A stretch of DNA of 64,000 nt from IMG/VR virus record IMGVR_UViG_3300016486_001578; one strand, 5' to 3'. Position 1 is the stretch's first letter, and each line of letters begins with the position of its first letter. The position numbers were made by a program, and so were the translations under genes. The notes under the pieces are model-generated. The model saw only the letters and a program-made list of their open reading frames with translations. It did no database searches and was not told the DNA's origin. This DNA is from a virus (lineage: Duplodnaviria > Caudoviricetes). Shown here in pieces: positions 56,087-63,462 of this stretch.

Positions 56087-57193
56087 ATGATAATAAATTT
56101 AGAATCAAAAACAGGACTTGCTGGTTTTTATGTGGTCTACGAAGGATCCACCAACTTAGAAAAGCCAGGATGGTATGGAATATCACACCTAATGGAGCAC
56201 CTTATGTGTAAAAATTTTGATCACCTACAAGAAGACTTCGATAAAGATGGAATAGACTGGAATGCTTATACCTCATCAAATGAGATAGTTTTCTATATAA
56301 CTGGATTAGAAGAAAAGGTAGAAAAATGGAAATATGAATTTATTAAATTATTGAGTGGGTTTGATGTAACCAAAGAAGAATTCGAAAATGAAAGAAAAAT
56401 TGTTTTAGAAGAATACATGGACGCCTTTAATGACCAAACACCAACACACGAAATGAATTTATTAAGAAGTAAATTTAATGATTTTAGTCCAATTGGGTCA
56501 AAAAAAGACTTAAAAAATTTAAAATTTATGGATTGTTTGAACTTTTTTGAACTTCAATATAGCCAACCAACTAAAATTATAAATGTTTCTAACAAAAAAT
56601 ATAAAAACAATATAATAAACTTCAACACAAATGAAGTTACTAAAAAGATTGAATTTGGAGAATATGATAATGAGCTAGAGCTTGGTAATAAATTTGATGA
56701 CAAATCATCACTTATTATGATATCACCTGTGATTGATGAAGATTTTGGTTATATTCATTTTATAAATTCAATGTTAGCACTTGGGCTAAAATCACCATTA
56801 TATCAAGAAGTAAGAGAAAAGCGTGGATTAGTTTATTACATACATTGTTATTTATCTAGAATGAATAAAGAGGGTATAATACAATTAGCTACACAAACAT
56901 CTAATAAAAATATTGACGAGGTCATAAGTTCAATTGAGTTAGTTCTAAGAAACCCGGATAAATATTTAACAAAAAGTAGATTCGATATAGTAAAGGAATA
57001 CTATAGTGTTAGATTAAAAAAGAGTGATATATTAAGACACAATAGTGTGGGGAGATGGATAAATCCGGATGGGTTCTCTGTTTATGATATATTAGAAGAT
57101 GTTACCATGGAAAAGATAAGAGAAGTATATGACAAATACTATAACTTTGATAGCTTCTATTTATCCAATGATAAAACAGAGTTTACAAAATGA
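56087..57193 (+). CDS. M16 (insulinase) family peptidase
   Basis: GISHLMEHL, NAYTS, ERKIVLEE, LYQEVREKRGLVY. Confidence 0.92.
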   Translation: MIINLESKTGLAGFYVVYEGSTNLEKPGWYGISHLMEHLMCKNFDHLQEDFDKDGIDWNAYTSSNEIVFYITGLEEKVEKWKYEFIKLLSGFDVTKEEFENERKIVLEEYMDAFNDQTPTHEMNLLRSKFNDFSPIGSKKDLKNLKFMDCLNFFELQYSQPTKIINVSNKKYKNNIINFNTNEVTKKIEFGEYDNELELGNKFDDKSSLIMISPVIDEDFGYIHFINSMLALGLKSPLYQEVREKRGLVYYIHCYLSRMNKEGIIQLATQTSNKNIDEVISSIELVLRNPDKYLTKSRFDIVKEYYSVRLKKSDILRHNSVGRWINPDGFSVYDILEDVTMEKIREVYDKYYNFDSFYLSNDKTEFTK

Positions 57194-60118: not shown

Positions 60119-60232
60119 ATGAGAGCAATTAACAAACATAAGCATTTTAGTAAGAAGTCATTTTTCTGGTTTAGAAACCAGGGTTCGGCAACAGATGCGT
60201 ATTGCTCTAATTTAAGTAAAACAGGAATGTAA
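60119..60232 (+). CDS. Leader peptide 1 (K/H/F/W-rich), MRAINKHKHFSKKSFFWFRNQGSATDAYCSNLSKTGM
   Basis: 37-aa ORF between promoter motifs and terminator; 11 of codons 6-18 are K/H/F/W. Confidence 0.85.
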   Translation: MRAINKHKHFSKKSFFWFRNQGSATDAYCSNLSKTGM

Positions 60233-60256
60233 ATATTTAAAATAGATATACAAATT

Positions 60257-60294
60257 AAACCCGGACAAATAAAATTGTCCGGGTTTTTTATTTT
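60257..60294 (+). terminator. Attenuator terminator before tRNA array 1
   Basis: AAACCCGGACAA-ATAAAA-TTGTCCGGGTTT plus T-tract. Confidence 0.9.
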
Positions 60295-60299
60295 AACTT

Positions 60300-60372
60300 A
60301 GACCCGTAGCTCAATCGGCAGAGCACCTGACTTTTAATCAGGGGGTAGTGGGATCGTAACCCACCGGGTCTA
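60300..60372 (+). tRNA. tRNA-Lys(TTT)
   Basis: Full cloverleaf; anticodon arm CCTGA-CTTTTAA-TCAGG; T-loop ATCGTAA. Confidence 0.92.
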
Positions 60373-60388
60373 CAAAAAAAAACACAAT

Positions 60389-60507
60389 GGTTGTGTAGCT
60401 CAGTTGGTAAATTGGCTTATCTTTCTTTTTAAAACCCTTTTATCATGAAGAGAGCGGGGGTGTGAAGTACCCTGACATTTGCTCCGGTTCGATTCCGGAC
60501 ATGACCA
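60389..60507 (+). tRNA. Atypical tRNA-Phe(GAA)-like gene with 42-nt insertion in the D-loop
   Basis: Acceptor GGTTGTG/CATGACC, D-stem GCTC/GAGC, anticodon arm GGGGT-GTGAAGT-ACCCT, T-arm TCCGG-TTCGATT-CCGGA. Confidence 0.65.
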
Positions 60508-60518
60508 CAAAAATATAC

Positions 60519-60591
60519 ACGGGCGTAGCTCAGCTGGTAGAGCAGTGGTCTCCAAAACCAAAGGTCGTAGGTTCGATCCCTACCGTTCGTG
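60519..60591 (+). tRNA. tRNA-Trp(CCA)
   Basis: Cloverleaf, loop CTCCAAA. Confidence 0.9.
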
Positions 60592-60601
60592 CAAAATATA
60601 T

Positions 60602-60675
60602 GGTGATTGTAGCTCAATTGGTAGAGCGCTCGATTGTGATTCGAGAGGCAGCGGGATCGTAACCCGTCTTTCACC
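60602..60675 (+). tRNA. tRNA-His(GTG)
   Basis: G-1, C discriminator, loop TTGTGAT; two T-T mismatches in the acceptor stem. Confidence 0.85.
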
Positions 60676-60682
60676 CAAATAT

Positions 60683-60755
60683 GGAACCTTGGCAGATTAG
60701 GTAATTGCGCCGGATTGAAGATCCGGATGACTCGGATCGTTACCGGGAGGTTCCA
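60683..60755 (+). tRNA. tRNA-Phe(GAA)
   Basis: Cloverleaf, CCGGA-TTGAAGA-TCCGG. Confidence 0.9.
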
Positions 60756-60765
60756 CAAAAAAAAT

Positions 60766-60837
60766 ACGTCTGTGGTGTAGTTGGTAACATTTTAGTCTCC
60801 AAAACTAAAGTCTTCGGTTCGAGCCCGAACAGGCGTG
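60766..60837 (+). tRNA. tRNA-Trp(CCA)
   Basis: Cloverleaf, TTAGT-CTCCAAA-ACTAA. Confidence 0.9.
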
Positions 60838-60859
60838 CTATTTAATAATAATAAAAAAT

Positions 60860-60905
60860 ACGTGAGTGAGCGTAGGTTAAGTCGGCAGGATTCCAACCCC
60901 TCGCC
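60860..60905 (+). pseudogene. Possible 5' fragment of a tRNA (Trp-like, loop TTCCAAC)
   Basis: Starts ACGTG like the neighbouring Trp tRNAs; no T-arm or 3' acceptor strand. Confidence 0.3.
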
Positions 60906-60910
60906 GTTAG

Positions 60911-61108
60911 AGTTTTGAAAATAATAAACACTCTATTGATACCAAAAATAAAATGAGCGAAAAGGCCAAATTAAGAATTGGTGAAAAAAATTCATCATTT
61001 GGAACTTGTTGGATAACTAAAAATGGTGTTAATAAGAAAATAAAAAAAGAATTAATTCAAACATACAAAAAGGATGGTTGGATAAAAGGTAGAATAATAA
61101 ATAAATAA
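60911..61108 (+). pseudogene. Remnant of a Seg-like homing endonuclease (NUMOD3 plus C-terminal DNA-binding part)
   Basis: KHSIDTKNKMSEK...GEKNSSFGTCWIT...GWIKGR*; no catalytic N-terminus. Confidence 0.7.
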
Positions 61109-61114
61109 ATAATT

Positions 61115-61188
61115 GCGCTTGTAACTCAGTTGGTAGAGTACCTGGCTTTTAACCAGGGAGTCGTCGGGTTCGAGTCCCACCGGGCGCA
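61115..61188 (+). tRNA. tRNA-Lys(TTT)
   Basis: Cloverleaf CCTGG-CTTTTAA-CCAGG; one bulged C in the T-stem. Confidence 0.88.
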
Positions 61189-61261
61189 CAAAAATTATGT
61201 GTTTGAACTTACAGTTTGAGATTTACACAGTACCTAAAATCTAAGTAAACTGGAGAAATAT

Positions 61262-61839: not shown

Positions 61840-62151
61840 TTGAAACATCTAAAACCATTCAATGAATCAAAATATAATGATATCGTAGATGATATTTTTT
61901 AGAATTAAAAGACTCTGGTTTTGAAATATGGCACTTAGATGATAAGCATGGACATGAAGTAGTAATAAGAAGAAATTAAAATTATATCTAGTGATGGTGA
62001 AGTGATGATTGATTTGTTTGATTATTTAAGAAACAAAGATTTTGAAAAAATAAAAGTTCTTACTACTACACACCTACATACAAAGAAAGAAGGAAAAAGA
62101 GGAATTATTGATTTGGAAAATTTAAAATATGTAATTATTCAATTTAAATAG
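61840..62151 (+). pseudogene. Small protein (MKHLKPFNES, TTG start) with two apparent frameshifts
   Basis: Continuous protein-like reading is restored by shifts near 61897 and 61968. Confidence 0.5.
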
Positions 62152-62223
62152 AAAAAAATTAGGAAATAACAAAAACAAGTATTACATTTATAATATATAT
62201 AGTAACAATAAGAAAATAAAACA

Positions 62224-62301
62224 ATGAATAACATAAACAACATATCGAATAGTTCTAGTCGTAGTTCGCTAAAAATTAGTGAGGGTTGTTCGTATTTGTA
62301 A
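62224..62301 (+). CDS. Leader peptide 2 (Ser/Arg), MNNINNISNSSSRSSLKISEGCSYL
   Basis: 25-aa ORF; control stretch TCG AAT AGT TCT AGT CGT AGT TCG. Confidence 0.85.
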   Translation: MNNINNISNSSSRSSLKISEGCSYL

Positions 62302-62325
62302 TATTCGTATAAAAAAGATATTTAT

Positions 62326-62357
62326 AAAGACCCTCTAATTTATTAGAGGGTTTTTTT
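62326..62357 (+). terminator. Attenuator terminator before tRNA array 2
   Basis: AAAGACCCTCTAA-TTTA-TTAGAGGGTTTTTTT. Confidence 0.9.
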
Positions 62358-62365
62358 GTTTTTAT

Positions 62366-62442
62366 GCCTTAGTATCAGCACCGAATACGAATCGGTAGTC
62401 TTGTAATGGATGAAAATGTGGGTTCGACTCCTACCTAAGGTT
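62366..62442 (+). tRNA. D-armless tRNA-Arg(ACG)-like RNA
   Basis: Acceptor GCCTTAG/CTAAGGT, 7-nt linker in place of the D-arm, ACCGA-ATACGAA-TCGGT, 21-nt variable region, T-arm GTGGG-TTCGACT-CCTAC. Confidence 0.65.
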
Positions 62443-62449
62443 CAAGTTA

Positions 62450-62641
62450 GTTAAACGTAAGGATAACTCTAAAATATGTAACGATTGTAGGTCGATTAAT
62501 AATAGGAAAGTTAAAAGACCATCATATGAAGAATTAAAAGAAGAAATTAAAATATCAAATTATACAAAGATGGGTAAAAAATATGGAGTTAGTGATGTCT
62601 CTATAAAAAAATGGATTAAAAATTATGAAAAAATGAAATAA
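62450..62641 (+). pseudogene. Remnant of an HNH-type homing endonuclease C-terminus (CxxC plus HTH)
   Basis: CNDC...RKVKRPSYEEL...GKKYGVSDVSIKKW; no start codon. Confidence 0.6.
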
Positions 62642-62660
62642 AATTAGTCACAAAAAAATT

Positions 62661-62748
62661 GGAAATGAAAGCAGTGCCATGGAGGTGCGACTAGTCTTGA
62701 AAACTAGGTCTCGTTAAATCGGGTGGGGGTCGGTTCCTCTCATTTCCG
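62661..62748 (+). tRNA. tRNA-Ser(TGA), 8/4 type
   Basis: GGAAATGA/TCATTTCC, CTAGT-CTTGAAA-ACTAG, long variable arm. Confidence 0.8.
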
Positions 62749-62759
62749 CAAATAAATAA

Positions 62760-62843
62760 GGAAGAGTAATTAAACAGGTGTTTGACCTCGTTTTGAAAAC
62801 GAGTGGTACTTTACGGTATGGGGATCGGGACCTCACTCTTCCG
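62760..62843 (+). tRNA. tRNA-Ser(TGA), 8/4-compatible
   Basis: GGAAGAGT/ACTCTTCC, D-arm TTAAAC-AGGT-GTTTGA, CTCGT-TTTGAAA-ACGAG. Confidence 0.82.
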
Positions 62844-62848
62844 CACAT

Positions 62849-62932
62849 AGAGAGTAATCTAGTCTGGTGACTAGGGCCGCCTGCTAAGCGTGTCGCACCT
62901 TCGGGTGTGGGGTTCAATTCCTCTACTCTCTG
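62849..62932 (+). tRNA. tRNA-Ser(GCT), 8/4 type
   Basis: AGAGAGTA/TACTCTCT, D-arm CTAGTC-TGGT-GACTAG, loop CTGCTAA, TTCG-capped variable arm. Confidence 0.82.
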
Positions 62933-62936
62933 CTAT

Positions 62937-63027
62937 GGAAGTTATGGTGTATTAGGTAATACTTCTTGTTTGGAAAACAAGAACCCGTGTAATGGCGGGC
63001 CCGTTTCGACTACGGTGACTTCCTCCA
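62937..63027 (+). tRNA. tRNA-Ser(GGA), 8/4 type, CCA encoded
   Basis: GGAAGTTA/TGACTTCC, T-stem CCGT/ACGG, CTTGT-TTGGAAA-ACAAG. Confidence 0.82.
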
Positions 63028-63109
63028 AATTAGAGGCTCATGAGGGCTTGTTTTCATTTCTATTTATGGGACAATATCAGATATAAAAAGAAAAAGAAAA
63101 TAAATACAT

Positions 63110-63199
63110 AGAAGTGTACTCAAATTGGTAAAGAGGGCAGTTTGCTAAACTGTTAGGCCGGTTAATAACTGGTGCGGGGTTCGAACCCCTCCATTTCTG
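63110..63199 (+). tRNA. tRNA-Ser(GCT), canonical type
   Basis: AGAAGTG/CATTTCT, GCAGT-TTGCTAA-ACTGT, long variable arm. Confidence 0.88.
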
Positions 63200-63234
63200 C
63201 TTATTTTTAAATATTTTTCCTTATCTTTAATGAT

Positions 63235-63462
63235 ATGAAGAGAGTTAAATGTATAAAGAACTTTTATAAAAGTACTTACGGAGATAAAATATTATTTGAA
63301 GATGGTAAAGAATATTACCAATTAACTGATTTTGTATCAGATGGATTAAAGTTTGTTTGTATAAAATCACCTCATATGTTGGGTAAGGGCATTGTTGAAT
63401 TTGCTTTGGTTGAAAAAACTGATACATATTTATTATTTAAAGATTACTTTGTAAGTATCTAA
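63235..63462 (+). CDS. Hypothetical protein
   Basis: 75-aa ORF. Confidence 0.6.
   Translation: MKRVKCIKNFYKSTYGDKILFEDGKEYYQLTDFVSDGLKFVCIKSPHMLGKGIVEFALVEKTDTYLLFKDYFVSI

Follow-up and report, generated by a model that had tools for sequence, protein, structure and literature searches.

Four tandem serine tRNA genes of a salt-lake megaphage belong to the (8/4) class, common in phage contigs and rare in annotation

Four consecutive genes in the window (the whole stretch of viral DNA analysed, 64,000 nucleotides long) are new members of the published (8/4) tRNA-Ser/allo-tRNA class, and every testable defining feature of that class is present in them. All lie on the plus strand: t1, tRNA-Ser(UGA), at 62661–62748; t2, tRNA-Ser(UGA), at 62760–62843; t3, tRNA-Ser(GCU), at 62849–62932; and t4, tRNA-Ser(GGA), at 62937–63024. 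Each of these coordinates includes the discriminator, and t4 is followed by an encoded CCA that ends at 63027. The span flagged in the first-pass annotation, 62661–63027, runs exactly from the first base of t1 to this CCA, with spacers of 11, 5 and 4 nt between t1 and t2, t2 and t3, and t3 and t4, respectively. The fold, the conservation and the anticodon set of t1–t4 are direct observations on these genes and their relatives; taking charging and decoding by analogy with published allo-tRNAs, we put the probability that t1–t4 give rise to functional (8/4) serine tRNAs at roughly 0.8.

In each of the four genes, nucleotides 1–8 pair with the eight nucleotides preceding the discriminator, a 4-bp T stem closes a 7-nt loop, and the variable arm forms a hairpin of 4–5 bp. 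The 8-bp acceptor and 4-bp T stems that the first-pass annotation had read in four consecutive serine tRNAs are therefore present in all of them. Equally as claimed, the standard 7/5 fold would cost a mismatch in three genes (U·U in t1 and t3, C·U in t4); t2 is the sole member of the set that can also form the 7/5 arrangement, through U49–A65. Three Sec-like D arms had been described, and these are found in t2 (2-nt connector, 6-bp stem, AGGU loop), t3 (2-nt connector, 6-bp stem, UGGU loop) and t4 (connector of 3–4 nt, 5-bp stem, AGGU loop). The gene t1 is an irregular 8/4 subtype, in which a 5-nt connector (AAGCA) leads into a 5-bp D stem with two G·U pairs and a 5-nt D loop, and the T loop reads GUCGGUU. 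The T loop of t2 is AUCGGGA, and both t1 and t2 carry G58 where A is usual. The anticodon stem comprises 6 bp in t4 and also in t3, where it contains one bulged U; pair 1:72 of t3 is A–U. The discriminator is G73 in t1, t2 and t3 and U73 in t4, and t4 has the U53–A61 pair that had been noted for Ser(GGA).

A covariance model built from other viral contigs only, without any window sequence (R2), scores t1 at 46.2 bits, t2 at 71.7 bits, t3 at 80.6 bits and t4 at 51.7 bits. When the 64 kb were scanned with R2, the sole match beyond these four genes was the neighbouring gene t5, at only 21.9 bits. This comparison gene, tRNA-Ser(GCU) at 63110–63199 on the plus strand, is of the ordinary type (41.7 bits with the Rfam tRNA model), with a 7-bp acceptor stem and a normal D arm; its T stem has 4 bp and a C49·C65 mismatch, which leaves an effective 7/4 layout. 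The canonical class II tRNA-Ser (7/5) was also considered as an assignment for t1–t4 and rejected: position 49:65 is U·U in t1 and t3 and C·U in t4, and the D arms are long-stemmed with tetraloops.

The window has a GC content of about 28%, and its long ORFs, read under the standard code, mostly lack a Pfam family match. At the DNA level it is closest to two uncultured megaphages, LR745206 (634 kb) and LR756502 (642 kb), which were recovered in a Japanese subsurface sample and a lake in France (PMC9723777). An M16-peptidase-like protein encoded at 56087–57193 is about 70% identical in LR745206, LR756502 and several large IMG/VR contigs, and the window DNA is also present in several salt-lake metagenomes; among the runs listed as containing the tRNA locus, none is an RNA run. 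Compared by megablast with the phage collection, 20 kb of the window returned no match.

The layout of t1–t4 recurs in other viral contigs. In LR745206 and LR756502 the syntenic arrays encode the same three types (UGA, GCU and GGA), and RNAfold alone folds their copies as 8/4 with 6-bp D stems. A second covariance model, R1, was built from 14 genes of this kind and seeded from the window; of 12 additional large viral contigs related to these phages, 8 yielded strong copies with it. Scanning IMG/VR with two narrow anticodon-arm motifs yielded 132 loci, and R1 matches of at least 47 bits numbered 125 in the first motif set and about 32 in the second (about 150 strong matches overall). The covariation counts use 92 distinct sequences of the first motif set, all from other viral contigs; gathered as they were by two motifs and a window-seeded model, these relatives are biased towards GCU anticodons and the 8/4 fold.

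Among these 92 relatives, the eighth acceptor pair is standard in 91 (A–U 66, U–A 16, G–C 7, C–G 1, G–U 1), with one non-pair. The 49:65 pair of the 7/5 alternative forms in 17 of the 92 in the model alignment, where it never covaries, and is pairable in 23 of the 92 in an end-anchored, alignment-free count. This second count is independent of the model alignment, and the two agree on the eighth pair. A covariation check of the kind that the first-pass annotation had proposed, made by counting pairs on the model alignment, supports the same structure: 97.2% of 8/4 positions are paired compared with 72.7% in shuffles, none of 500 shuffles reaches 97.2%, pairing falls to 33–55% when partners are slid by 1–3 columns, changes occur on both sides in 25 of 28 pairs, and the eighth pair appears with all four Watson–Crick types. 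Covariation is also found in the D stem, where five pairs are solid and covarying and the sixth is formed in 52 of 89 relatives, in the 6-bp anticodon stem with its one-base bulge, and in the variable arm, which abuts the T stem without an unpaired base (closing G·U in 88/92). The innermost T-stem pair is U–A in 49 of the 92 relatives and A–U in 4. U53–A61, A54 or G54, and the bulged 6-bp anticodon stem recur across the relatives and are features of the class, not defects of the window genes.

Individual genes vary in a manner that keeps their pairing. Between t3 and its LR745206 copy there are seven differences, all pairing-preserving (three double changes and one G–C to G·U change). Mycobacterium phage JoeDirt and Leptolyngbya phage Lbo-JY46 each carry a gene of the t1 subtype, about 77% identical, whose D stem has changed in a compensatory way (GUGCC/GGUGC versus GCUAC/GUGGC). 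Contigs from four other salt-lake metagenome runs, compared over 62150–63260, show no changed letter in the tRNA genes where these are covered, and thus yield no covariation at the population level. Judged from sequence, this conservation and the compensatory changes point to function, as had been suggested for the four tRNAs.

The (8/4) and (9/3) tRNAs were described by Mukai et al. 2017 (Nucleic Acids Res 45:2776, PMC5389517), who met them as false tRNA-Sec matches. Allo-tRNAs of both forms were found to fold, to be charged with serine and to be used by E. coli ribosomes, and (8/4) tRNA-Ser was already reported in bacteriophages, within tRNA clusters (PMC5389517). The window genes resemble this published (8/4) tRNA-Ser in the 12-bp acceptor branch split 8+4 (t1–t4), in the Sec-like D arm with a long stem and a pyrimidine-ended tetraloop (t2–t4, with t1 departing from it), and in the combination of a long variable arm, G73 or U73 and serine anticodons. 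They differ in forming a set of four in a salt-lake megaphage, downstream of a leader-peptide attenuator, and in the irregular connector and T loop of t1. Allo-tRNAs with non-serine anticodons share the same body plan and a presumed serine identity but decode Leu, Ile, Arg, Asp or stop codons, with many of them being toxic or without activity (Mukai et al. 2017); the 8/4 genes of the window read serine codons only, so no recoding is implied. With bacterial tRNA-Sec (RF01852) the window genes have in common an 8-bp acceptor stem, a 6-bp D stem with a 4-nt loop, a long variable arm, a 6-bp anticodon stem and, by analogy with allo-tRNAs, probable serylation by SerRS. tRNA-Sec differs in its UCA anticodon, its 13-bp branch (8/5) and its partners SelA and SelB, and only t3 reaches the family threshold.

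Bacterial SerRS recognizes an identity set composed of G73, the first acceptor pairs and the long variable arm, and does not read the anticodon; it also accepts tRNA-Sec. In the 92 relatives, pairs 1:72 and 2:71 are invariant G–C and pair 3:70 is A–U in 91, in agreement with what we take to be these SerRS identity elements. The exception within the window is t3, with A1–U72 where all 92 relatives have G1–C72. Among the relatives, 78 have G as discriminator, 8 have U and 6 have A, and the anticodon is a serine anticodon in 91 of 92. In the remaining gene of this 8/4 family, a single row in the 92-row alignment (A3), the anticodon is GUA (Tyr). A search of five related megaphage genomes for the SerRS N-terminal domain was negative, and charging would therefore fall to the host enzyme.

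The anticodons of t1–t4 (UGA, UGA, GCU and GGA) cover both serine codon boxes, as the first-pass annotation had stated, and the anticodon set of the window reads all six serine codons. Serine accounts for 9.6% of the 14,111 codons in long ORFs, and TCA, TCT and AGT make up 37%, 27% and 20% of serine codons, a usage that fits two UGA genes, one GGA gene and two GCU genes. At the same array slot, the GGA gene is 8/4 in LR745206, LR756502 and contig G001 and 7/5 in contigs G003 and G008; this swapping of 8/4 and 7/5 serine tRNAs among related megaphages argues for equivalent, ordinary decoding.

We propose that t1–t4 would be transcribed as a single, tightly spaced precursor, which host RNase P and 3' processing enzymes would trim, and that CCA would be added post-transcriptionally to t1–t3. 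Host SerRS would then charge the four tRNAs by way of the long variable arm, the discriminator and the first acceptor pairs, independently of the anticodon and of the 7/5 boundary. EF-Tu and the ribosome could in turn use them for all six serine codons of this AT-rich, serine-rich phage genome. The charging and decoding steps of this scheme are modelled on the published activity of allo-tRNAs in E. coli.

Several alternative readings bear on this proposal. The genes could be ordinary 7/5 class II serine tRNAs in which a mismatched outer T-stem pair is simply tolerated, as is common in loosely built phage tRNAs: U49–A65 is possible in t2 and in the UGA subtype, the neighbouring t5 is of the 7/5 type and has C·C at 49:65, and forced 8/4 and 7/5 folds differ by just 0–3 kcal/mol, a small gap that carries little information under a constraint that imposes non-standard pairs. 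We consider this very unlikely, because the 49:65 pair, rarely formed and without covariation, stands against an 8:65 pair kept in nearly all relatives with four Watson–Crick types, because a 2-nt connector and a 5–6-bp D stem with a tetraloop are non-canonical, and because most 8/4 genes escape both ARAGORN and the general Rfam tRNA model. That the genes are selenocysteine tRNAs, or else decaying pseudogenes, is hardly credible. The former idea can appeal to the Rfam tRNA-Sec score of t3, which lies above the gathering score (48.8 versus 47 bits), and the latter to the irregularity of t1, the greatest among the four; none of the genes, however, has a UCA anticodon, the acceptor branch has 12 bp (8+4) and not 13, differences from relatives are compensatory, and the t1 subtype is kept, with its compensated D stem, in both a mycobacteriophage and a cyanophage.

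Other alternatives concern what the genes are for. Their main role might be to sequester host defence enzymes directed at tRNAs, in the manner of decoys or sponges, or to regulate as tRNA-like RNAs, a reading to which the duplicated anticodons of the array (two UGA and two GCU), the unusual T loops of t1 and t2, and the finding that some allo-tRNAs are inactive in translation and lie near toxin–antitoxin loci (PMC5389517) would lend themselves. We regard it as unlikely, since all anticodons are serine anticodons that together cover every serine codon, gene copy number tracks codon usage, 8/4 and 7/5 genes exchange at the same slot, and the first three acceptor pairs are invariant and presumably serve as SerRS identity elements. 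A related proposal accepts that SerRS still charges the tRNAs and interprets the 8/4 layout as a counter-defence adaptation, through which they would escape host toxins that recognize tRNA-Ser by the position of the variable arm, such as MenT/AbiEii-type nucleotidyltransferases, with the attenuator switching the set on when host serine tRNAs are disabled. Phage tRNAs that escape tRNA-targeting defences have been described (van den Berg et al. 2023, PMC10264068), with T5 tRNA-Lys acting against PARIS (PMC11464382) and tRNA-Tyr against retron effectors (PMC11555353), and the substrate preference of MenT/AbiEii-type nucleotidyltransferases depends on how long the variable arm is and how it is oriented (PMC11541572). 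Like the defence-escaping tRNAs, the window genes are phage-borne tRNA copies that differ from the host version; in those cases the changes lie in the anticodon loop and were shown by experiment, whereas in the window it is the helix layout that differs. Relative to the 7/5 geometry, the 8/4 geometry places the variable arm one pair further from the 3' end along the acceptor/T stack and leaves no unpaired bases separating that arm from the T stem. We know of no defence that targets the 8/4 versus 7/5 helix layout, and we hold the counter-defence proposal, and with it the nuclease resistance suggested in the first-pass annotation, to be reasonable as an idea but unlikely.

Returning to the reading of t1–t4 as working (8/4) serine tRNAs, one practical consequence is that standard tools overlook such genes. 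ARAGORN calls only t4 among t1–t4 and misses 82 of the 92 distinct 8/4 relatives. In Rfam searches at E<10, t1 and t3 match the tRNA-Sec model only, t1 at 31.6 bits and t3 above the gathering score, and across all families no match was returned for t2 or t4 at this cutoff. The tRNA-Sec interpretation of the Rfam match was rejected on the basis of the anticodons (UGA/GCU/GGA) and the 8+4 branch of 12 bp. Routine annotation is thus blind to a whole lineage of phage serine tRNAs, and because it misses 8/4 genes, phage tRNA censuses and codon-compensation analyses undercount serine. Some 'selenocysteine tRNA' calls in phages probably belong to the 8/4 serine class.

The first-pass annotation had called 8/4 tRNAs a known but rare class. 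Known they are, from the 2017 study; their rarity is confined to annotation, and in phage contigs the 8/4 serine class is common. Among viral contigs, the 17-nt motif CCGCCTGCTAAGCGNGT marks 70 genes that are 8/4-only and 4 that are 7/5-only, whereas in species-representative bacterial genomes, among the 120 matches listed, it marks no 8/4-only gene and 102 7/5-only Ser(GCU) genes. The narrower W version of the motif retrieved four 8/4 genes from bacterial assemblies, every one on a MAG contig. Their sources are a Bacteroidetes MAG, where the contig is small, and MAGs of Romboutsia, Faecalimonas and Oscillospiraceae. These four may represent prophage or binned phage DNA. Copies also occur in cultured phages, all unannotated in GenBank: three in Phaeobacter phage MD18 (CGA, UGA and GCU) and one each in Cellulophaga phage phi10:1, Leptolyngbya phage Lbo-JY46 and Mycobacterium phage JoeDirt (L360:1441–1529, 1540–1623 and 2152–2235; L362:1474–1558; L361:1503–1591; L359:1501–1590). 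One of the MD18 copies overlaps the end of a CDS annotated as a hypothetical protein.

The matched 8/4 loci range from 26% to 60% GC and come from phages of different hosts. This recurrence in diverse phages, together with the almost exclusive presence of 7/5 genes among the motif matches in bacterial genomes, suggests that 8/4 serine tRNAs are a phage-maintained lineage. The 8/4 shape (2017) and its presence in phages were already known; the present analysis adds the abundance of the class in phage DNA, its omission by ARAGORN, the unannotated copies in cultured phages, the recurrent class features and a serine set that reads six codons. Its main value lies in exposing an annotation blind spot and in pointing to cultured phages in which the 8/4 class can be studied.

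Turning to the genomic setting, the window contains two tRNA arrays, at 60300–61189 and 62366–63200. The parts of the serine attenuator that the first-pass annotation had placed upstream of the four genes are present, as a serine-rich leader ORF and terminator at 62224–62355. A promoter-like site (62166–62194, +) is followed by the leader ORF (62224–62301, +), whose 25 codons include eight for Ser and one for Arg and which precedes Arg-like and Ser tRNAs, and then by an intrinsic terminator with a 13-bp stem and a T run (62326–62355, +). As read from the sequence, positions 62277–62288, inside the end of the ORF, are a near-duplicate of the 3' arm of the terminator, and by pairing with the terminator 5' arm this segment could form an antiterminator. 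The first array is organized likewise: a leader ORF (60119–60232, +), within a unit that includes a strong terminator (60119–60286), has many Lys, His, Phe and Trp codons and lies ahead of tRNAs for Lys, Trp, His and Phe. No plus-strand terminator-like site was found between 62355 and 63034, so t1–t4 could belong to the transcription unit of the leader. Directly 3' of t4 lies a weak terminator-like hairpin (63034–63049, +), identified as a consensus match only, which is a possible end of the t1–t4 transcription unit.

Between the terminator and t1 lies an Arg-type tRNA-like gene with an ACG anticodon (62366–62442, +). It has no D arm in the usual place: a 7-bp acceptor stem is followed by UA and a 5-nt linker, the anticodon arm, a stretch of 21 nt bearing a GUAAYGG motif, and a normal T arm. 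ARAGORN makes no call here, and the Rfam tRNA model gives 24.4 bits, below threshold. A model built from five such Arg-like genes identified 13 distinct copies, spread over at least 9 other viral contigs, including L017:1680–1760, L102:1823–1897, L153:4212–4290 and L104:2998–3078. The anticodons of all D-arm-less copies are those of Arg (ACG, UCG, UCU) or Ile (UAU, GAU), and linker nucleotides 4–6 are complementary, in a fixed register, to the three nucleotides before GUAA in 6–7 of the 13. The syntenic counterpart in LR756502 is a normal tRNA-Arg(UCG).

From the end of this odd tRNA a frame stays open through 62444–62641 (+), with no start codon until near its end. It terminates with a C-x2-C motif and a helix-turn-helix-like tail (…GKKYGVSDVSIKKWIKNY…), and its sequence suggests what is left of the C-terminal part of a homing endonuclease, lying within the tRNA array. 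Two 39-nt cores of this segment recur in other, deeper contigs of the same metagenomes.

In the first array, a 119-nt tRNA with a GAA (Phe) anticodon (60389–60507, +) carries a 43-nt insertion in its D loop; it scores 37.2 bits with the Rfam tRNA model and receives no ARAGORN call. LR745206 and LR756502 encode tRNAs of 82–89 nt with the Lys anticodons UUU and CUU (L001:2449–2714; L002:953–1222). The three Lys-UUU genes that were folded from these two genomes have a variable-arm hairpin, so that an anticodon of class I sits in a body of class II; the Lys tRNAs of the window are ordinary, at 74–75 nt.
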